Assembly: GCA_041737125.1 (NCBI GenBank)
Contig: JBGSSJ010000014.1
Coordinates: 68,375 to 132,374 of the forward strand
Source of the DNA: Minisyncoccia bacterium
GTDB lineage: Bacteria; Patescibacteriota; Minisyncoccia; Phycocordibacterales; UBA9973
Length of the DNA: 64,000 nucleotides
Direction: 5' to 3'
In this document: positions 29,244 through 42,136 of the stretch, in pieces
Numbering within the stretch: the first letter of the stretch is position 1
Layout: each line of letters opens with the position of its first letter
Translations under genes and position numbers: made by a program
The notes under the pieces: generated by a model
The model's database searches: none
The model's input: only the letters and a program-made list of their open reading frames with translations
Told to the model about the DNA's origin: nothing

Positions 29244-29969
29244 TCAACCTAGTGGATGATTCTTCATATCCTCCTCCGCTTTCTTTGGGTTTGTAGCAAA
29301 AAACACTTGCCCAATATACCCAGGTTCATCAATCAGCATAATGCCACCATCCAGATCGTATTTAGTGCAGACTTCTTTCAAGCTCATTAGTGTAATGACA
29401 CAAGTGTCTGCTCTGACTATTCTCTTCAAGTTCTCAACAAAAGGTCTCTTCTCTTTAAAATCAATCTTTGATGGTCTGTACGTTGGGTGAATAAACTCTG
29501 ACAACCTTTGATATGACGTTAGGTATTGGGACTCAGAATTTACGGCTGTAAACTTCTCACGAATCTTAGTCTCCTTGTAGCCTTTCAGTTGCTCCTTAAA
29601 AAATTCATACATTTCCTTTGCCTCAGGTGTGTATTCATCTAGTGCTTCGAACTTTTTCGCCATGCCTTTGACTTGTGTCAGCTTAAAGTTTGTCGCTCTC
29701 TTTTCAGTGTCCTCCTTGTAGATGTATTGGAGATTGATTGAGTTTTCTAAGATTGATCTAGATAGCTTTATACACCCCTCAAAATCATTTCTCATGATCA
29801 ACGTGTCCATTGATTCAAATATCCCAATGAACTCTTCTATAGAAAATTTGGTCACATCAAAAACGTCCTCGGGTATGGATTTCCGCTTTTCCTGAATCTG
29901 CTCCAGATGATCCTGAAGAATCGACTTCATGGCTCCGAACACTGTCTTTTTCTTGAAGAGGTTAAACAT
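29244..29969 (-). CDS. hypothetical protein (operon member, unknown function)
   Basis: ORF only; tightly packed with neighbours. Confidence 0.4.
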   Translation of the reverse strand: MFNLFKKKTVFGAMKSILQDHLEQIQEKRKSIPEDVFDVTKFSIEEFIGIFESMDTLIMRNDFEGCIKLSRSILENSINLQYIYKEDTEKRATNFKLTQVKGMAKKFEALDEYTPEAKEMYEFFKEQLKGYKETKIREKFTAVNSESQYLTSYQRLSEFIHPTYRPSKIDFKEKRPFVENLKRIVRADTCVITLMSLKEVCTKYDLDGGIMLIDEPGYIGQVFFATNPKKAEEDMKNHPLG

Positions 29970-29983
29970 TGTTTTACTATTAA

Positions 29984-30199
29984 TTACTTTCCGTTAGTCT
30001 TTTCAAATTTCTCTAGCTCCTGTTTGATCACATTCCTACAAAGGACTTCGAGGTAATTCAATCTTTTCAATATCTGTTCTTCGGTACTTGTTTCGTCAGA
30101 CATTATTTTCCTATACTCCTCTATAGAGATCGACATGTTAAATGAGTACGATAAGTTGAAGTATGAATCCACTAAGAAGTAGTACGCCTCCAATAACAC
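29984..30199 (-). CDS. hypothetical small protein (likely start at internal Met near 30136)
   Basis: ORF overlaps the upstream gene unless the internal Met is used. Confidence 0.2.
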   Translation of the reverse strand: MLLEAYYFLVDSYFNLSYSFNMSISIEEYRKIMSDETSTEEQILKRLNYLEVLCRNVIKQELEKFEKTNGK

Positions 30200-30929
30200 C
30201 CCATTTTCTTTGAGTCAGACGATCTTGAACTTGCGGTAGTTTTAGATTCTCTTCATCAGTACCACCCCAACGAGAAACACCCAATCGTAGTGCTTCTTTT
30301 TGAGAAATAAACAAACCTTTTGCAAAAGCGATACTTCCTAGAAAGCTCAATGTGAGTCCAGCGATATTTAAGTACCCATCAATACCAGTCAATTGAACTG
30401 TAGGTATATCAAAGAAACCAGACAAAGCTGACCACGGGATAACCGACAGGATCAATGCGAGATAAATAACGATGAATATTTTTGGAACATATAATTCGAT
30501 GTGACTGAACGGCCAGTAAACTTTCTTATCTTCTCCACGACCCAACATTTCCCATTCCGTATCGTACAGAGCAAGTGGTAGTCGCATTTCAATCGCGTGG
30601 ACTACTTTGAATTTCGCACTGTTCAGCCCCTTGTATGATGCGATGATTCTGTACCACAAGTAACAGATGGTTATACCTGCAATCGAAGATACACCAAGCA
30701 TAAGACTTATTTCGGACTGACTTGTCTTTGTTGCAATAAATCCCAAAAGAGCAACAAGTGCGGTATTCAAACCAAGAAAGAACTCGTTAGTCTTTTGTCT
30801 GCGATCACTTATCTTCTCAGTAGCGTTGATATAAATCTTGTACTGATCCAAAAGGTGCTCAATATACTTATCACCGTATTTTTCCGATGCAGAGATAAAT
30901 AATATTTTTTCAATATCTTCTTTTTGCAT
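30138..30929 (-). CDS. multi-TM membrane protein with short N-terminal cytoplasmic helix; SLATT/DUF4231-like putative pore-forming effector
   Basis: N-terminal KYIEHLLDQYKIYINATEKISDRRQKTNEFFLGLNTAL pattern followed by about 5 TM helices; 4-bp gap to the TIR-like gene. Confidence 0.45.
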   Translation of the reverse strand: MQKEDIEKILFISASEKYGDKYIEHLLDQYKIYINATEKISDRRQKTNEFFLGLNTALVALLGFIATKTSQSEISLMLGVSSIAGITICYLWYRIIASYKGLNSAKFKVVHAIEMRLPLALYDTEWEMLGRGEDKKVYWPFSHIELYVPKIFIVIYLALILSVIPWSALSGFFDIPTVQLTGIDGYLNIAGLTLSFLGSIAFAKGLFISQKEALRLGVSRWGGTDEENLKLPQVQDRLTQRKWGVIGGVLLLSGFILQLIVLI

Positions 30930-30932
30930 AAA

Positions 30933-31340
30933 TTATGACAGCTCACGGATACCAGCCACGATAGAACTTGTGTTCCATTTGACTATTTTGTCCGCATTTT
31001 TCTTTACGACCAATGATGTTTTTTCACTCGCCCAAGGTTCGATAGCAAGAATCGGTTTCGGATTTGTGAACCCTTTTGCAAGTGCAATCTCTTTATTAAT
31101 CCAATCGCTGTAACTTGAGTATACTCCCGCAAGAATTATGATCACATCACAAAAACGCATCTGATCTTGTATAGCTCGTGATAAAGCAATAGAGCTTGGA
31201 GCGTTGTGAATGGGATCATTCTTCGGTACAGAATAGTCCTTAAAATTAAATCGTGGGTCTGCGTTGAGCATTTTAATGAGCTTATCGTATGCATCACCGT
31301 ACGCCCAAGAGTGACTTATGAATATGTTGTAGTGTCTCAT
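30933..31340 (-). CDS. TIR-like domain protein (DUF1863/ThsB-type)
   Basis: N-terminal YNIFISHSWAYGD and conserved W..KEIALAKG glutamate region; 135 aa. Confidence 0.6.
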   Translation of the reverse strand: MRHYNIFISHSWAYGDAYDKLIKMLNADPRFNFKDYSVPKNDPIHNAPSSIALSRAIQDQMRFCDVIIILAGVYSSYSDWINKEIALAKGFTNPKPILAIEPWASEKTSLVVKKNADKIVKWNTSSIVAGIRELS

Positions 31341-31343
31341 ATA

Positions 31344-32285
31344 TTATATCTTTCCCTCCTTAACTAACCTCCAATAATGGTAACCGAGCGCCGTTAACTT
31401 ACATGTCTTTGAATTTTGAGCAACATAATACATATGCTCCTCTCCCACAGGCATCACCAAACCTATGCTCACCAACTTCTGCAGATTTTTTAGTATCGCG
31501 ACTTTTTCAGGAACAGCGATATCCTTATTATCAAATTCATAGGTTGGATCGAGTTGATACTCTTGCTCTGGTACCGAAAAATACTCCGTCATCTTTCTTA
31601 AGACTTCTACTGGTACCTGCGGACTAATGGTTCGCAAAGAAGTGAATCTTGTGACATTTGTTTTAAAAACTGGTCGCTGATCCCATGGACCAAGAGCTTG
31701 ATCAATATAGGCGTAGACACTGCCTGGTGTTATGTGACCACGCAAATCCGCCGCACCCCCTTGTAGTGCGTCAATAAGTAAATTAGTGAAGATGCCATGA
31801 CCATTAACCTCAATAGCACTTTCCGCAGACCTGCTCGCAGTCAGAATTACTACACCTTCGATTATTTGAGCAGAACCATTTCCAATTATCGCAGGAGATC
31901 CAAATGCTCCAGAATGACAACAATCCAAAATTATCACCTTATCTTTCGCTTTGGATTTATTTGCCAAAGTAAGTATTTCGTCCATTGAAACACCCTCATC
32001 ATTCTGCTGGTAATCTGGTGTCACTATATAACCACCAAGATCATTGAAGAATCCGTGACCTGAAAAGTAAAACAAGGCAATGTCACTATCACCCTCAAAC
32101 AATTCTCTGACCATGGTTTTTAGCTGTGACTTTGTTGTAACATCAGTCTCCAATTTCACGGCAAAATTAGGAGCGCCGTCACCATTCTTCTCAATTGTGG
32201 TAGCAAAGGCTGTGGCATCATTAACACACCCCTTAAGAGGTGCTGTTGGATAGTTATTTATACCGATAACAAGTGCCTTTCTCAT
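31344..32285 (-). CDS. caspase-family (peptidase C14, metacaspase-like) cysteine protease
   Basis: ALVIGINNY...GCVNDA, FYFSGHG (His) and ILDCCHSG (Cys) catalytic dyad motifs. Confidence 0.75.
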   Translation of the reverse strand: MRKALVIGINNYPTAPLKGCVNDATAFATTIEKNGDGAPNFAVKLETDVTTKSQLKTMVRELFEGDSDIALFYFSGHGFFNDLGGYIVTPDYQQNDEGVSMDEILTLANKSKAKDKVIILDCCHSGAFGSPAIIGNGSAQIIEGVVILTASRSAESAIEVNGHGIFTNLLIDALQGGAADLRGHITPGSVYAYIDQALGPWDQRPVFKTNVTRFTSLRTISPQVPVEVLRKMTEYFSVPEQEYQLDPTYEFDNKDIAVPEKVAILKNLQKLVSIGLVMPVGEEHMYYVAQNSKTCKLTALGYHYWRLVKEGKI

Positions 32286-32289
32286 GTTG

Positions 32290-32661
32290 TTAAAGTTTGC
32301 TCAAGAATGATTTTATGTTTGTCCAACTCCAAACATTAATAAGTCGTGTGTTCAGAGGATATGAAAGTGTAGGACGATCACTGGTTGAGTACATCAACAT
32401 TGTCGGGATCTTTTCTTCCTCTGCGGTTTTAATTTCAAATAGCTGACCTGTTGCTGATGGCGTATTTTTACTTATGAGTGCAATAACGCCGTCACAGCCT
32501 TTGATTTTTGTTCGACACTTCGATTCCCAGTCTGTCTCCCATGGTGTCTTTACAGACATATCAACAAACTCAAATGGTGAGTTGTCGTTTTTTGCTTGCC
32601 CTACAAGAAAATCTCGAGATGTCTTGTCTTCAATAGCGAATGCGATAAATATTCTTTTCAT
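32290..32661 (-). CDS. TIR-like domain protein (DUF1863/ThsB-type), second copy
   Basis: MKRIFIAFAIEDK N-terminus and GVIALISKNTPSATGQLFEIKTAEEE conserved Glu region. Start moved to the internal Met, which leaves a 4-bp gap to the LexA stop. Confidence 0.6.
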   Translation of the reverse strand: MKRIFIAFAIEDKTSRDFLVGQAKNDNSPFEFVDMSVKTPWETDWESKCRTKIKGCDGVIALISKNTPSATGQLFEIKTAEEEKIPTMLMYSTSDRPTLSYPLNTRLINVWSWTNIKSFLSKL

Positions 32662-32665
32662 AATT

Positions 32666-33283
32666 TTAATAGAGATCTCCGGGAAGTACCGCAACTACTA
32701 CTCCTTGGATCATGCAGTTATCTGTTAATACGATCGGCTTGTAGGTTTTGTTGCTCGACTTTGGTCTGAGAACAACTACGCCGTCTGCCTTTTCAAAAAC
32801 CTTCACAGTAGCCTCGTCATTGATGAGTGCAACTACTTTGTCTCCGTCCTGTGCAGTATCTTGCTGACGAATCAGTAAGAGATCGCCACTGTCGATACCT
32901 GCCTCATTCATTGAGTCGCCAACCGCACGCAGAATAAAATACTTTGAACCTTTCTTTGCCAGACCTGTAGAGACTGGGATATAGGTTTGTATATTCTCTT
33001 CTGCAAGCGCTGGAGTACCGCAGGTAACAGCTCCGATCAGAGGAACATTCACAGTGCTTACTGAAGCTACCGACTGTGTACCAATGATCACGAGCTGTCT
33101 CCCGATCTTCTTTACCAATCCTGCTTCGATCAAACGATCAATCACAAGACTAGCGGAGCGTGGAGATTTTCCTCCCGTTACCTCGTTTATTTCACGAAGC
33201 GATGGGCTTTCACCATAATGGATAATCTTGTTGCGGATAAGGGCAAAAGCTTTTTTGTCTTTGTCACTAAGGTTATTTGTCAT
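32666..33283 (-). CDS. lexA: LexA-like repressor (winged HTH plus S24 peptidase); likely start at Met of MTNNLSDKDKKAFALIRNKI
   Basis: LexA-like N-terminal domain, cleavage-site region VTCGTPALAEEN, Ser motif VGDSMNEAGI and Lys in ATVKVF. Confidence 0.75.
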   Translation of the reverse strand: MTNNLSDKDKKAFALIRNKIIHYGESPSLREINEVTGGKSPRSASLVIDRLIEAGLVKKIGRQLVIIGTQSVASVSTVNVPLIGAVTCGTPALAEENIQTYIPVSTGLAKKGSKYFILRAVGDSMNEAGIDSGDLLLIRQQDTAQDGDKVVALINDEATVKVFEKADGVVVLRPKSSNKTYKPIVLTDNCMIQGVVVAVLPGDLY

Positions 33284-33373
33284 GGTATAAACAGTATAAA
33301 ATATCGTATACAAAAAAGCAAGACTCCCTACTGAGGGGGAGAACACTGTCAAGGATTCTTTTGACTCTTCCAC

Positions 33374-37618: not shown

Positions 37619-37977
37619 TAACTTTGGACGGTTTTTCTAATAATGAACTGGGCAGGTAGCAAAAAACTCCTAGCCAGATCCGACATACCCCGTGAGGTAT
37701 GCCCACATCAGTTTCCCGATGTGACCGTCCAAAGTAGACCCCTGACTAGGAGATCTTTGCTTTGGACGGATTTGCAACCATATCCTTTGGCGAACCAAAG
37801 GGGTTAGGTCGACTGATATTCAGTTGTAAATGAATAATAACATTTTCAGAGTTATTACTCTAGATTGATTGTATCGCTGATACGTGGTTTTGCTAAGGAT
37901 AGTATCGCGAGTATGCGACGTATTTCTTAGTCTGCATAGTCTTAGCAAAATAGATGATCTGCGTCATTAATTAATAT
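37619..37977. promoter_or_regulatory. palindrome-rich non-coding region upstream of the second serine recombinase (candidate attachment site and promoter)
   Basis: CTTTGGACGG at 37621 and 37758 with its inverse CCGTCCAAAG at 37725; CTCCTAG / CTAGGAG inverted pair; TTGCTAAG..CTTAGCAA inverted pair. Confidence 0.35.
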
Positions 37978-39300
37978 ATGGAAACGCAGTACATAAGTAA
38001 CCTTGGTGTTAAGACGGAGGTAATTCAAGCGAAAGTAAGATATGTCTTATACGCCAGAAAATCAACTGAATCTGATGAGAAGCAAGCCCTTTCGATTGAG
38101 TCTCAAGTAAAGGAGATGTTAACTATCGCAGATCGAGACGGTTTAACAGTCGTCGATATTAGGCGTGAATCTCATTCTGCAAAAGAGTCAGGGCAACGAC
38201 CAGTATTTAAAGAATTACTTGAGGATATTCGGCGAGGTAGATATACAGGAATTCTGACCTGGGCACCTGATCGTCTTTCTCGAAATGCCGGTGATCTTGG
38301 TTCAGTTGTTGACCTTATGGACGAAAACAAGCTTATAGAGATTAGGACATATGGACAACACTTTAAGAATTCACCAAACGAGAAGTTTCTTTTAATGATT
38401 TTATGCTCACAAGCAAAACTCGAGAACGATAATAAAAGTATCAATGTAAAACGAGGATTACGGACAAGATGTGAAATGGGGCTTCGCCCAGGTCCTGCAA
38501 TATTTGGATATTTAAACGAAAAGCATGTAGATAAAAAATGTGAAGTTATTATCGACACAGAGCGAGCACCTGTAGTTAAAAAGATATTTGAAAAAGTAGC
38601 ATATGAAAAATGGAGTGGGAGAAAAATATATCACTGGTTAAAGTTTGAGTTAAATCTAAAAACTCGTAACGGAAACAAAGGACTTACCCTCAGCAACATC
38701 TATATGATTTTAGAAAACCCCTTTTACTACGGGGTTTTTGAATATCCCAAGAAAAGTGGAAATTTTTATAAAGGTAGACACGAACCAATCATCACAAAAG
38801 AACTGTTTGATACTGTGCAAGAACAAGTTAAATCACAAACTCTTCGTACTCAAGAGCCAAAAGAATTCGCTTTTATTAAAATGATGAATTGTGGTCTTTG
38901 TGGATCAGGAATTACCGCAGAAGAAAAATTTAAGAAACTTAAAGACGGCAGCATAAACAGACATGTGTATTATGGCTGTGCCAAATCTAAGGATAGATTT
39001 TGTAAGTGTGGGTATATTAATGAGAATGATTTGATTCAACAATTTGAAAAACTAATTGATCAAATTGATATCAATGAAATTGGAATGAAAGAAAAAATTA
39101 AATACGAAGTTGAGCGAATTAAAAGATTTAACCATTCTGTATTAAATATAAAACAACAAATACAGATAAAAGATGTGGATGTAAGGGACTACGCCAAGTT
39201 TATTTTGAAAGATAGCTCGATTGAAGACAAGCGAGAATTACTCATGTGCTTTAAAAACAACATTTTGTTAGATAATAAAACTATTAGGTTGAGTTATTAA
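37978..39300 (+). CDS. large serine recombinase (paralog of 1948..3591)
   Basis: YVLYARKSTESDEKQALSIESQ...WAPDRLSRN catalytic domain and a Cys cluster CGLCGS...CAKSKDRFCKCG. Confidence 0.85.
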   Translation: METQYISNLGVKTEVIQAKVRYVLYARKSTESDEKQALSIESQVKEMLTIADRDGLTVVDIRRESHSAKESGQRPVFKELLEDIRRGRYTGILTWAPDRLSRNAGDLGSVVDLMDENKLIEIRTYGQHFKNSPNEKFLLMILCSQAKLENDNKSINVKRGLRTRCEMGLRPGPAIFGYLNEKHVDKKCEVIIDTERAPVVKKIFEKVAYEKWSGRKIYHWLKFELNLKTRNGNKGLTLSNIYMILENPFYYGVFEYPKKSGNFYKGRHEPIITKELFDTVQEQVKSQTLRTQEPKEFAFIKMMNCGLCGSGITAEEKFKKLKDGSINRHVYYGCAKSKDRFCKCGYINENDLIQQFEKLIDQIDINEIGMKEKIKYEVERIKRFNHSVLNIKQQIQIKDVDVRDYAKFILKDSSIEDKRELLMCFKNNILLDNKTIRLSY

Positions 39301-39379
39301 CAGTGTATTATCATAAAGCTTAGACTTTCGGTTTTATTTCGGATATAATTGAATTGTAGCAAATTAGATTTCTAAACAA

Positions 39380-40957
39380 ATGACCACACTAACCAAAAAA
39401 CAAAAAGAAGTATTTGATTATATAAGCACATATATCGCTGAAAATGGTATTTCTCCAACCATTGATCAGATTCGTAAAAAATTAAAGCTGAAGGCAGTCT
39501 CTACTGTTCATGAACATATCGCTTCCCTAAGAGAAAAAGGATACCTTTCAAAGTCAGATAGTACAGATCGAGGGATGACACCAAAAAAAGAAATCAAATC
39601 GGTAATTGAGATTCCTATAGTTGGTAAAATTGCTGCTGGTCAACCAATTGAGGCATTAGAAGATCATCAGGCTACTATTTCAATAATAAATCCCTCTATT
39701 AAGAGTGCTAAGGATCATTATGCTTTACGAGTAGTTGGTGACAGTATGATCGATGAAGGTATTTTTAATGGAGATATTGTGGTTATTAAAAAACAATCCG
39801 TAGCAGAGAATGGACAAACTGTTGTCGCGATTATTGACGATAACCAAGCAACCCTCAAAAAATTATATAAGGAGGATAAAAAAATAAGGCTACAGCCTGG
39901 AAATCCTGACATGAAGCCTTTGTTTAGAGTAGATGTTGAGATCAGAGGTGTTGTTGTTCAAGTTATAAGAAATATCGATAATGAAGCAGAAGTGTTACCT
40001 ACAAAGAAACAGAAGCATGGTTTTAGAACAATAGACTTATTTGCTGGAGTAGGAGGCATCCGAAAAGGATTTGAAAATGCAGGTTTTAAAACAGTCTTTG
40101 CAAATGATTTTGATGCCCCTTGTAAGCAGACATATGATTTGAATTTTAAAGATTCTAAATTAATAATTGAAGACATTAGAAAAATTGGTATCAATGATTT
40201 ACCAGAGTTTGACTTTATACTCGGAGGTTTTCCTTGTCAGGCATTTTCTATAGCAGGCTATCGCAAAGGCTTTGATGATCCTAAAAATAGAGGTAACCTG
40301 TTTTTTGATATTGCGAAGATTATTGAAGCAAGAAAACCAGCAGGCTTCATGTTGGAAAATGTTAAAAATCTAAAAAGCCATGATGATGGAAATACTTTTA
40401 GAATTATCGAAGAGACCCTCAGAGATCTTGGTTACCATGTAAAATCCAAAGTACTAAACACTATGGAATATGGAAATGTTCCCCAAAATCGTGAGAGAAT
40501 TTATATTGTAGGATTTAGAAATAAAGATTACTTTGATAGGTTTAACTTTCCAGAACCAGTAAAACTCACAAAAAAAATAACAGATCTCTTAGAGAAAAAT
40601 GTTCCTGAAAAATACTATTACAATGGCAAACCTCTTTTTGATAAATTAAAGAAAGACGTAAAAGAAGAAGGTAAGGTATACCAATGGCGAAGGCAATATG
40701 TTCGCGAAAATAAAAGTGGGGTTTGCCCTACTCTCACAGCAAATATGGGAATGGGTGGACACAATGTACCAATTATCAAAGATAAGAAAGGTATCAGAAA
40801 ACTTACGCCATTAGAGTGCTTTAGAATACAAGGATTTCCTGCAACTTATATTTTACCCAAGATCGCAGACTCTTCTTTGTATAAACAAGCTGGCAATTCA
40901 GTTAGTGTCCCTGTTATTGAAGCCGTTGCTAAAAAAATGATGGAGGCAATGAAGTAG
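39380..40957 (+). CDS. fusion of a full-length LexA repressor (wHTH plus S24 autopeptidase) to a cytosine-5 DNA methyltransferase
   Basis: LexA part: LTKKQKEVFDYI, cleavage site KIAAGQP, VGDSM Ser, TLKKL Lys. MTase part: motif I DLFAGVGG, motif IV GFPCQAFS (PCQ), ENV, C-terminal QAGNSVSVPV. Confidence 0.85.
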   Translation: MTTLTKKQKEVFDYISTYIAENGISPTIDQIRKKLKLKAVSTVHEHIASLREKGYLSKSDSTDRGMTPKKEIKSVIEIPIVGKIAAGQPIEALEDHQATISIINPSIKSAKDHYALRVVGDSMIDEGIFNGDIVVIKKQSVAENGQTVVAIIDDNQATLKKLYKEDKKIRLQPGNPDMKPLFRVDVEIRGVVVQVIRNIDNEAEVLPTKKQKHGFRTIDLFAGVGGIRKGFENAGFKTVFANDFDAPCKQTYDLNFKDSKLIIEDIRKIGINDLPEFDFILGGFPCQAFSIAGYRKGFDDPKNRGNLFFDIAKIIEARKPAGFMLENVKNLKSHDDGNTFRIIEETLRDLGYHVKSKVLNTMEYGNVPQNRERIYIVGFRNKDYFDRFNFPEPVKLTKKITDLLEKNVPEKYYYNGKPLFDKLKKDVKEEGKVYQWRRQYVRENKSGVCPTLTANMGMGGHNVPIIKDKKGIRKLTPLECFRIQGFPATYILPKIADSSLYKQAGNSVSVPVIEAVAKKMMEAMK

Positions 40958-40959
40958 GG

Positions 40960-41523
40960 TTACCAAACCTTTACATCAGTCGCGATTGGCTTAAGGTCAT
41001 ATTTTGCAATCACATCTTTTTTGATACAAAATCTAGGTCGTCTCTTTTCTTCTTGTTGCTGTTTTAGCGTTTGAAGTTTATTGACCGGGTTATCATAGAT
41101 AAAATTATTAGGTATTTTATATACCTTAAAAGTTCCGTCGACTCTGCCGTCAGCATAAAAATCTAAAAAATATAAATCGTCCCACTTAGATTTTGGACCA
41201 AAAGAAGTAAGATCATTTTCTACACTACAAGCTTTGATTTGTTCTGCTCTCTTTGTTTTAGTATTAAACGTATCAAATGATGTATTAGAAAGTTTTTTAG
41301 CACTTATTAATCTTGTGGATCCAGACCATAAACAAAAAGCAACCTCAGATAATCCTTCAGGAAAATTTGGTTCACGCGATTTATAATCACGCATTCCCAT
41401 CTTTAATCCTTTCCATAGATCAAATAGTGTTTTCCATTTTTTTCCATCAGAAGAATCAAACTCCATTAGATCAACGGTGCAGTCTTCATCAAAAATAGTA
41501 GTGTTTACTTTAACTAAGTTCAT
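40960..41523 (-). CDS. putative type II restriction endonuclease partner of the C5-MTase (small, possibly Bsp6I-like)
   Basis: Convergent with only a 3-bp gap to the C5-MTase gene; 187 aa with acidic/Lys clusters compatible with a PD-(D/E)xK enzyme. The call rests on context only. Confidence 0.35.
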   Translation of the reverse strand: MNLVKVNTTIFDEDCTVDLMEFDSSDGKKWKTLFDLWKGLKMGMRDYKSREPNFPEGLSEVAFCLWSGSTRLISAKKLSNTSFDTFNTKTKRAEQIKACSVENDLTSFGPKSKWDDLYFLDFYADGRVDGTFKVYKIPNNFIYDNPVNKLQTLKQQQEEKRRPRFCIKKDVIAKYDLKPIATDVKVW

Positions 41524-41628
41524 GATGTATTTATACTATATTTTTATCAATTTCTCAAACAAAAACACCTTTTTAATTAAAGGTGTTTTTGTTTTAAAAC
41601 TAGCTATCTTTGAGCTAGCTCTTGTTTG

Positions 41629-41728
41629 CTGCCAGACCTGGACTCGAACCAAGGAAGTGTCCTACCCGCCCGCCATTGCAAGCATGAGCTTGCTCAGGCG
41701 TTGCGGGCGGGCCATTAGACGATCACTG
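41629..41728 (-). pseudogene. degenerate tRNA-Gln paralog: T-arm and acceptor 3' strand intact, anticodon arm deleted, 47-nt GC-rich palindrome inserted in the D-loop, 5' acceptor mutated
   Basis: Aligns base-for-base with tRNA-Gln at 41743..41813 except for the missing anticodon arm and the inserted CCCGCCCGCC...GCGGGCGGG hairpin (41665..41711). Confidence 0.45.
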
Positions 41729-41742
41729 ATTTCTGCACAAAG

Positions 41743-41813
41743 CTGCCAGACCTGGACTCGAACCAAGATAACCTCCTCCAGAGGGAGGTGTCCTACCATT
41801 AGACGATCTGGCA
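41743..41813 (-). tRNA. tRNA-Gln (anticodon CTG)
   Basis: Acceptor TGCCAGA/TCTGGCA, D-arm GTCT-AATGGTA-GGAC, anticodon arm CCTCC-CTCTGGA-GGAGG, T-arm CTTGG-TTCGAGT-CCAGG. Confidence 0.8.
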
Positions 41814-41828
41814 GCTTTGTGCATAAAT

Positions 41829-42065
41829 TTATATTCTCTCTTTTAAAAATCTTCTCCCAAAACCTGTTTTAAAATACTTTTCTCTTTTCAATGCTTTTTC
41901 TTTACTATTACAAGCTTCATAATATAAAATTTCTAAAGGTCTTCTATTCTCAGTAGCTGGTACTTTGCCTGCAGAATGAAGATTAAATCTATTCTTCAGG
42001 TCTTCGGTATAACCTACATATAAATCACCATCCTTTAAACTTTTTAATACATATGTGTAATACAT
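41829..42065 (-). CDS. GIY-YIG nuclease superfamily small protein (YhbQ/UPF0213-like)
   Basis: YTYVLKS...GDLYVGYTEDLKNRFNLHSAG GIY-YIG motif and C-terminal REKYFKTGFGRRFL. Confidence 0.75.
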   Translation of the reverse strand: MYYTYVLKSLKDGDLYVGYTEDLKNRFNLHSAGKVPATENRRPLEILYYEACNSKEKALKREKYFKTGFGRRFLKERI

Positions 42066-42073
42066 AAATTAAA

Positions 42074-42136
42074 GTCCTACCCGCCCGCCATCGCAAGTAT
42101 GAGCTTGCTCAGGCGTTGCGGGCGGGCTATTAGACG
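42074..42136. repeat. second copy of the GC-rich ~47-nt palindromic element with tRNA D-arm-like flanks (gtcctac...attagacga)
   Basis: 42079..42125 matches 41665..41711 with 3 substitutions; the flanks gtcctac and c(t/c)attagacga are conserved. Confidence 0.55.

Follow-up and report, generated by a model that had tools for sequence, protein, structure and literature searches.

Introduction

Self-repression of a DNA methyltransferase (methylase) through an N-terminal DNA-binding domain is established for the EcoRII, SsoII, Ecl18kI and ScrFI restriction-modification (R-M) systems (PMC3874152), and damage-linked alleviation of restriction is established for Type I systems, the same source noting that it is unobserved in other classes and asking explicitly why they lack it (PMC4231737). 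A restriction system has to avoid cutting the DNA of its own host, and how Type II systems cope with unmethylated sites after repair or recombination is poorly understood. Here we analyze a 64,000-nucleotide stretch from a Minisyncoccia bacterium (GenBank assembly GCA_041737125.1, contig JBGSSJ010000014.1, positions 68,375 to 132,374 of the forward strand; hereafter the window, numbered from its first letter), which encodes a 525-amino-acid (aa) protein predicted to be a fusion of the SOS repressor LexA with a cytosine-5 (C5) DNA methylase, next to the gene of a putative restriction endonuclease. What would be new here is that methylase autoregulation, itself known, uses a full signal-responsive LexA; if so, a universal damage signal, the RecA filament leading to LexA cleavage, would be hard-wired into a Type II methylase. 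A literature search and a 2025 review of R-M biology yielded no description of a LexA-methylase fusion or of SOS-coupled control of a Type II methylase, in agreement with the original prediction, which was aware of no description either, with the limit that a 2017 study of the patescibacterial SOS network lay outside the search.

Like the fusion, M.EcoRII, M.SsoII, M.Ecl18kI and M.ScrFIA have an N-terminal DNA-binding domain and an operator over their own promoter, which provide negative feedback (PMC3874152). In SsoII/EcoRII-type enzymes this domain is a short helix-turn-helix (HTH) with no protease and no known signal input, whereas the fusion carries an entire LexA with a conserved self-cleavage apparatus and an SOS box; their endonuclease gene is usually divergent and co-regulated, whereas that of the window is convergent with no box upstream. 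By analogy, then, the fusion is an enzyme that works like the SsoII/EcoRII-type methylases and is not a homologous member of the group. Compared with free LexA (TIGR00498; structures 1JHH, 3JSO and 3K2Z), it is likewise full length, with a cleavage site, a Ser/Lys dyad and a lexA-type promoter with its box, but differs in having a 310-residue C-terminal enzyme, linkage to an endonuclease, horizontal movement and an Ala-Gly instead of a Cys-Gly site. The methylases of the Bsp6I and Fnu4HI systems are plain proteins of ~315 aa, in contrast to the LexA-fused methylase of the window, for which we predict the specificity GCNGC; M.Fnu4HI methylates the inner C of this sequence. Finally, Type I alleviation (EcoKI, ClpXP-dependent) has the same outcome that we propose below, less self-restriction at unmodified sites (PMC4231737; PMC11109961), but it is post-translational, acting by proteolysis of HsdR at unmodified sites with no LexA cleavage, whereas our proposal for the fusion is a transcriptional up-shift of the methylase; the likeness would be an analogy of function without membership.

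Architecture of the fusion protein

The fusion gene (39380..40957, + strand) is a single unbroken open reading frame (ORF) of 525 aa with an ATG start. Its N-terminal half contains a LexA winged-helix DNA-binding domain (wHTH; residues 1-65, 39380..39574), matched over the full profile length by Pfam LexA_DNA_bind (E 4.6e-16) and aligned to 1LEA and 1JHH, and an S24 autoprotease and dimerisation domain (residues 79-193, 39614..39958; Pfam Peptidase_S24, E 4.9e-29). The NCBIfam lexA equivalog TIGR00498 scored 186.4 bits against a cutoff of 110.95, covering profile positions 1-202 of 203. Residues 1-200 matched the structures 3K2Z, 1JHH and 7B5G end to end and residues 1-86 matched 1LEA, and the alignment to the Thermotoga maritima and Escherichia coli LexA structures extends to the natural C-terminus of LexA (VIRNID in the fusion, VIRNGD in E. 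coli). The predicted cleavage site, Ala86-Gly87 (39635-39640; motif KIAAGQP, residues 83-89), is in register with E. coli A84-G85, Ser122 of the dyad (39743-39745; GDSM, 120-123) with S119, and Lys160 (39857-39859; TLKK, 158-161) with K156, while the recognition helix reads S41-T-V-H-E-H46. Judged by sequence, the N-terminal half is a whole SOS-type LexA with wHTH, Ala-Gly site and Ser/Lys dyad.

A poorly conserved linker of ~18 residues (197-214, 39968..40021) leads from this natural C-terminus to motif I of the methylase. The C5 methylase domain (residues 215-521, 40022..40942) is matched by Pfam DNA_methylase (E 2.1e-92) at profile positions 1-323 of 324 and by TIGR00675 (dcm) with 339.8 bits, and it carries motifs I (FxGxG), IV (PCQ), VI (ENV), VIII, IX and X (GNSV) in canonical order, among them DLFAGVGG (219-226), GFPCQ (283-287) with the catalytic Cys286 (40235-40237), ENV (326-328) and QAGNSV (503-508). 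The original prediction had read the 525-aa ORF as a complete LexA followed by a complete C5 methylase, and both halves were recovered, each by its profiles and the first also by end-to-end structure alignment, with all of the named motifs at the residues given. Existing annotation uses generic names: the NCBI annotation pipeline PGAP labels homologues "transcriptional repressor LexA", another generic database name is "DNA (cytosine-5)-methyltransferase 1", and the methylase models of PADLOC match only residues 194-524.

Conservation and origin of the family

Counting one genome per species, we found confirmed relatives of the fusion in at least 567 species-representative genomes, nearly all labelled Patescibacteria; the labels among the listed species include Nomura-, Vogel-, Giovannoni-, Uhr-, Moran-, Shapiro- and Zambryskii-bacteria and Paceibacterota. 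The search of other genomes for LexA-Dcm fusions that the original prediction had suggested thus turned up a large conserved family of this group instead of a one-off. Among the protein clusters listed, the best 120 share one three-domain architecture of ~525 aa, at 77-90% identity and from many independent assemblies, and the family shrinks to very few representatives at 50% clustering. No viral contig was found with a LexA-methylase fusion.

Alignment of 78 fusion sequences (61-90% identity) showed Ala86, Ser122 and Lys160 to be invariant in all 78 and Gly87 to be kept in 77, so that the dyad is intact both here and against the solved LexAs; the same full conservation holds for motifs I, IV (PCQ), VI (ENV) and X of the methylase. 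The linker is the least conserved segment of the fusion (column conservation 0.46), and the target-recognition region is the most conserved part of the methylase, although the endonuclease partners vary. Ratios of nonsynonymous to synonymous substitution (dN/dS) were 0.056 for the wHTH, 0.075 for the S24 domain, 0.175 for the linker (the highest) and 0.037 for the methylase, at a dS of ~1.3-1.5, which is near saturation. Both halves of the fusion are under strong purifying selection, and such low ratios at near-saturated dS indicate that the fusion is old and that both halves have been maintained.

In a tree rooted with E. coli LexA, 76 of the 78 fused LexA halves fell into one clade and the free LexAs into another, at ~50% identity between them. 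The simplest history is that an SOS-type lexA gene acquired a methylase at its 3′ end once, long ago, and retained its autoregulated promoter. The cleavage site also differs between the two groups, being Cys-Gly (IACGEP) in the free patescibacterial LexAs that have a TTCGG box (L106-L183 among our numbered loci) and Ala-Gly (IAAGxP) in the fused ones.

The metagenome loci also held damaged or shortened copies. A few were frameshifted fusions (L138 and L144). In three others (L128, L145 and L177) the SOS box is followed by a LexA-like ORF of only 121-125 aa, with the recognition helix kept and no methylase following on the same strand; in L128 and L145, where S24 sequence remains, the Ala-Gly site and the catalytic Ser are lost (GNHM or GDHM). 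These short ORFs are either decayed relics or non-cleavable mini-repressors.

Promoter and LexA box

The fusion gene is preceded by a promoter (39320..39349, + strand) with a -35-like element (TTAGAC/TAGACT, 39320-39326) and a TATAAT -10 element (39344-39349). Read as TAGACT-17-TATAAT (39321-39349) it has 10 of 12 matches, which makes it joint best within 39200-41700 and best on the + strand. The spacer between the two elements contains a LexA (SOS) box (39326..39342, + strand), the direct repeat TTTCGG-ttttat-TTCGG with an 11-bp period, and this arrangement of promoter and box is conserved in the 78 loci. The Alphaproteobacterial LexA box, GTTC-N7-GTTC, is also a direct repeat with an 11-bp period (PMC4951493), and a later paper (PMC7739468) cites a Patescibacteria study among direct-repeat LexA cases. 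Across 872 kb of fusion-related loci, 62 of 63 copies of the box lie at the fusion gene's own promoter. The 64-kb window holds no second copy of TTCGG-N6-TTCGG, even with one mismatch allowed, and the endonuclease gene is therefore not co-regulated.

The half-sites vary with the recognition helix. The helix ST[IV]H[EQ]H pairs with TTCGG in 61 of 63 cases, the other two having a TTCGT variant and an inverted TTCGG copy, while STAH[YH]Y pairs with TTCTA in nine of nine, ATVHKH with TTCGC, and STAHHH with ATCGA. Among divergent fusions both half-sites change jointly and track the helix, with several independent switches and no exception. This covariation, confounded as it is by the relatedness of the sequences, is the main evidence from which we infer that the fused wHTH binds its own promoter.

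We examined 80 loci from a metagenome scan for the box plus the -10 element. About 26 were fusions, counting intact genes, genes truncated at a contig end and frameshifted or decayed relics; another 8 were free-standing lexA genes, encoding proteins of 197-203 aa with the helix S-T-[IV]-H-E-H and having the same layout of box and -10, and one was a recA gene with the box 181 nt upstream; the rest were mostly chance matches in high-GC or coding DNA, to which about 30 of the 36 non-fusion box matches belong. Since the same box and promoter layout stand before free lexA genes, and the box also before a recA gene, sequence comparison identifies TTCGG-N6-TTCGG as a real SOS box and suggests that the methylase was appended to a lexA gene that retained its promoter. 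The earlier idea that expression of the methylase is wired to the SOS signal gains strength from these occurrences, and, the box being genuinely of the SOS type, the fusion may interact with the host SOS regulon. A private operator for the fusion, which we had considered, is refuted by the presence of the box elsewhere, at the 8 free lexA genes, at one recA and at a small number of others.

In two loci of the same scan (L119 and L179) the box plus -10 directly precedes the gene of a small protein of 81-82 aa that matches no Pfam family above threshold; the two proteins are homologous, and this protein is possibly an uncharacterised member of the patescibacterial SOS regulon. In 47 of the 78 fusion promoters (loci L008-L085) a perfect DnaA-box 9-mer, TGTGGATAA, lies just upstream of the -35 element, ~80-90 nt before the start codon, compared with 16 occurrences in the remaining ~870 kb of the loci. 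Its reverse complement, TTATCCACA, occupies the equivalent position in 7 of the 8 free lexA promoters (L113-L183). The 9-mer is absent from the window's own fusion promoter. DnaA may co-regulate lexA-type promoters in Patescibacteria.

Other candidate elements were set aside. The Gram-positive-type LexA box GAAC-N4-GTTC has two matches in the window, which is not above chance. A conserved 5′ untranslated region (AATTGTAGCGCAAA...GCAATATG) is common to close relatives only and was treated as shared ancestry, not as a functional element. Operator-tethered methylation, or a promoter switched by methylation, was rejected, as GCNGC lies within -60 to +76 in only 4 of 61 operators. A GCNGC site at 39632-39636 consists of the Ala85-Ala86 codons (GCN GCN) of the LexA cleavage site; in 37 of 61 loci these Ala-Ala codons account for a conserved GCNGC ~300 nt past the operator, which is probably a coincidence of the genetic code.

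The endonuclease partner and predicted specificity

The gene convergent with the methylase (40960..41523, - strand) encodes a 187-aa Bsp6I-family Type II restriction endonuclease by its matches to Pfam RE_Bsp6I and to a PADLOC Type II endonuclease model, and two bases separate its stop codon from that of the fusion gene. Homologues are named Bsp6I-family endonucleases by NCBI, and the fold is PD-(D/E)XK, with the GCNGC-reading NhoI and Eco15I as nearest folds; the original prediction that this ORF is a restriction enzyme is borne out to that extent. The clade to which the methylase belongs takes in fusions of R.Bsp6I with a methylase as well as unfused viral methylases that neighbour Bsp6I-like or NgoFVII-like endonucleases. 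Of 13 palindromes examined, GCNGC shows the strongest depletion, with 0.62 of the expected count in the window and 0.54 when all loci are pooled. On the strength of the RE_Bsp6I family, the NhoI/Eco15I-like fold, the R.Bsp6I-methylase fusions and the depletion, it is well supported that the window carries a Type II R-M module with predicted GCNGC specificity. Its methylase belongs to an M.Bsp6I/M.Fnu4HI-like clade, with GCNGC as predicted target and G-m5C-NGC as predicted product. That endonuclease and methylase share one target is suggested by their linkage.

Of the 74 related loci with enough downstream sequence, 71 have a convergent ORF whose end is a few bases at most from the stop codon of the methylase, and these tail-to-tail partners belong to at least eight unrelated endonuclease families (Bsp6I-like, NgoFVII-like, PD-(D/E)XK_5 and five without a Pfam match). 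In 21 related loci (~19 distinct), spanning four endonuclease families, an 80-aa HTH_3 C-protein gene lies directly upstream of the endonuclease gene, as in C-protein-controlled Type II systems; the window's endonuclease gene, in contrast, stands alone, with no C gene and no confidently identified promoter. As far as gene order and domain content tell, the conserved frame is a LexA-methylase with an opposed, swappable endonuclease and an optional C gene. The fusion is thus not rare, occurring in hundreds of Patescibacteria species as a conserved methylase backbone with interchangeable endonucleases.

Other arrangements of the same parts occur. Two IMG/VR viral contigs encode unfused methylases of the same clade (L087, 6189-7688, 70% identity; L088, 7986-10734, 64% identity), each followed by a co-directional Bsp6I-like or NgoFVII-like endonuclease, with a Vsr-like ORF downstream in L088. 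In two proteins (P0197 and P0210) a Bsp6I endonuclease domain is fused ahead of a methylase of this clade, and a 777-aa variant (P0228) combines LexA, S24 and Dcm with an extra Eco57I-like N6 methylase domain. One 85.7-kb contig of Candidatus Vogelbacteria, CAIRHC010000009.1, carries two fusions (L015 and L037) with the same operator type and helix and with different partners, one Bsp6I-like and the other of an unannotated family of ~280-300 aa.

Proposed mechanism and rival explanations

We lean towards the view that the fusion is a methylase under its own repression and inducible by the SOS response, and that it brings down the ratio of restriction to methylation when DNA is damaged. Of its parts, self-repression is the one in which we have by far the greater confidence, and the physiological purpose is more tentative than the view as a whole. 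In an undamaged cell the fusion, dimerised through its S24 domain, would sit on the box, possibly alongside a host LexA of the same specificity, and repress its own synthesis. Because repressor and enzyme are one polypeptide, the methylase would be kept at a low set point by true feedback on its concentration, and the protein would be a natural repressor-enzyme fusion whose concentration is its own feedback signal. On entry of the module into a naive cell the promoter would be fully open. After DNA damage, filaments of RecA on single-stranded DNA would cause the S24 domain to cut at Ala86-Gly87 and free the DNA-binding domain from the S24-methylase body; the promoter would then be derepressed and methylase synthesis would rise with endonuclease expression unchanged. 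The restriction-to-methylation ratio would drop during repair, protecting unmethylated GCNGC sites that arise from repair or recombination, as a transcriptional Type II counterpart of Type I restriction alleviation. With a LexA of its own, the module would be portable among hosts whose LexA reads other sequences; the covalent link would make it independent of host LexA specificity, which fits its horizontal spread and the presence in the window of another LexA-like protein with an unrelated helix and a different repeat. Together with its 30-bp operator the fusion would offer an easy experimental handle on SOS regulation in an uncultivated phylum.

Several points weigh against this proposal. 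The DNA binding of the fusion, its cleavage under RecA stimulation and the activity and specificity of its methylase are predictions from sequence. A tblastn search for recA, with an E. coli RecA sequence as query, found no match in the window or the fusion loci, and the inducer is therefore not seen in this organism. An AlphaFold model of the whole fusion, built on a shallow alignment, was for that reason poor (mean predicted local distance difference test score 63, below 50 in the S24 region); it went unused, and the alignment to solved LexA structures took its place. In one related locus (L047) the box is inverted and away from the promoter. Inducibility would take no more than an SOS box in front of an unfused methylase gene, so the covalent link is not fully explained, and since other genes share the box, the fusion might have its main role at other SOS promoters. 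In E. coli both products of LexA cleavage are degraded, and if the S24-methylase fragment were likewise unstable, damage could lower methylase activity instead of raising it.

Carried further, such degradation would turn the module into a suicide switch triggered by damage or infection: the cleaved S24-methylase would be destroyed, methylation would lapse and the stable endonuclease would cut the host chromosome, with abortive infection or stronger post-segregational killing as the outcome. The new C-terminus left by cleavage, ...I-A-A, resembles a ClpX tag, the neighbourhood in the window is rich in defence genes, and an unstable methylase does strengthen post-segregational killing (PMC3874152). 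Cleavage would at the same time derepress the same gene and replenish the methylase, however, and hemimethylated DNA stays protected for one generation, while the C protein that delays the endonuclease in the ~19 related loci follows the usual host-protecting logic; we regard the suicide switch as improbable. At the other extreme the LexA part might be no more than a DNA-binding dimer that represses its own gene, comparable to the short HTH at the N-terminus of SsoII-type methylases, with its self-cleavage physiologically unused. Self-repression alone would account for the position of the box and for the covariation of helix and box, and known methylase autoregulators need no protease. What makes this very doubtful is that residues needed only for cleavage (Ala86-Gly87, Ser122 and Lys160) are essentially invariant in 78 sequences at near-saturated dS, and that the decayed relics without cleavage residues are also without a methylase. 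That the fusion arose in sequencing or assembly, or is really two neighbouring genes joined by a frameshift, is refuted: the frameshift or stop between the halves against which the original prediction had warned is excluded by a single ORF, by the same unbroken ~525-aa architecture in the best 120 clusters, by relatives in at least 567 species genomes from many independent assemblies, and by purifying selection on both halves and the junction.

The alternative to which we give most room, unlikely as we judge it, is that the cell uses the fusion as its SOS master repressor, solely or as a second role, and that the fusion occupies the boxes of recA and other damage genes, in which case its primary function would be that of LexA, the R-M module would be hard to lose and genome methylation would be coupled to the SOS state. 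Its LexA half lies above the NCBI lexA equivalog threshold, PGAP names its homologues as the repressor, and it shares its helix, its box and the full arrangement of its promoter with free lexA genes, with the box also upstream of a recA gene. Moreover, the only other LexA-like gene of the window (32666-33283) is not an obvious SOS LexA, since it is 33% identical, has an unrelated helix and a TATAC-N7-TATAC repeat, and heads a caspase/TIR operon. Set against this, the promoter of the fusion itself accounts for 62 of the 63 boxes in the 872 kb flanking fusions, the gene moves with exchangeable endonuclease partners through unrelated contexts and lies here within a recombinase cassette, two copies can share one contig (L015 and L037), and free and fused LexAs form separate clades at ~50% identity. 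In a stronger form, which we hold to be decidedly unlikely, the fusion is the only SOS-type LexA in the genomes that carry it, a mobile R-M module having captured or supplying the host's SOS master repressor. Loss of the module would then leave SOS deregulated and the chromosome open to restriction, a repressor covalently tied to a methylase would control recA and other damage genes, and genome methylation would follow the SOS state. A fusion acting as master repressor would represent a selfish module that had taken over a core stress regulator.

Mobile cassette and genomic neighbourhood

By blastn, the fusion and the endonuclease gene lie with a serine recombinase gene in a 3.9-kb mobile cassette (37768..41650), which shares 82.7% nucleotide identity over 3,888 bp with two loci of Candidatus Nomurabacteria (L003 and L006) in which the flanks are different. 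The recombinase (37978..39300, + strand) is a large serine recombinase of 440 aa with Pfam Resolvase, Recombinase and Zn_ribbon_recom domains; it is 93% identical in L003 and L006, homologues occur near the fusion in several other loci, and it is the probable integrase of the cassette. Genes flanking the module vary from locus to locus.

Just past the cassette end ARAGORN predicted a tRNA-Gln(CTG) gene (41742..41813, - strand), and the cassette boundary at ~41650 falls within tRNA-like sequence; the vicinity of the tRNA-Gln gene would be a likely context of integration. The tRNA-like sequence at 41620-41720, beside the intact tRNA-Gln gene, is broken by a GC-rich hairpin (cctacccgcccgcc...ggcgggcggg), and the GC-rich motif occurs again at ~42065-42095, after a GIY-YIG gene (41829-42065). 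The interrupted sequence may be a tRNA disrupted at an integration site or a small repeat element.

The second LexA-like S24 repressor of the window (region 29244-33373, - strand; start at ~33283) has a Cys-Gly site (VTCGTP) and scores 141.8 bits with TIGR00498, above the cutoff; the TATAC-N7-TATAC repeat is in its promoter, at 33294-33310. The apparent operon that it heads continues with a 134-aa ORF, an EACC1-type caspase (31344-32285), a ThsB-like TIR protein (30933-31340), an 8xMP membrane protein (30138-30929) and a DUF5677 protein, and is a candidate damage-regulated defence operon. Between this operon and the recombinase cassette lie genes for a ParB-like/N6-N4 DNA methylase of 426 aa, a small HTH protein of 129 aa and a 480-aa protein that resembles the large subunit of phage terminases (33608-36696, + strand), which look like a phage or satellite remnant; in L003 a similar N6_N4 methylase gene is found upstream of the recombinase.

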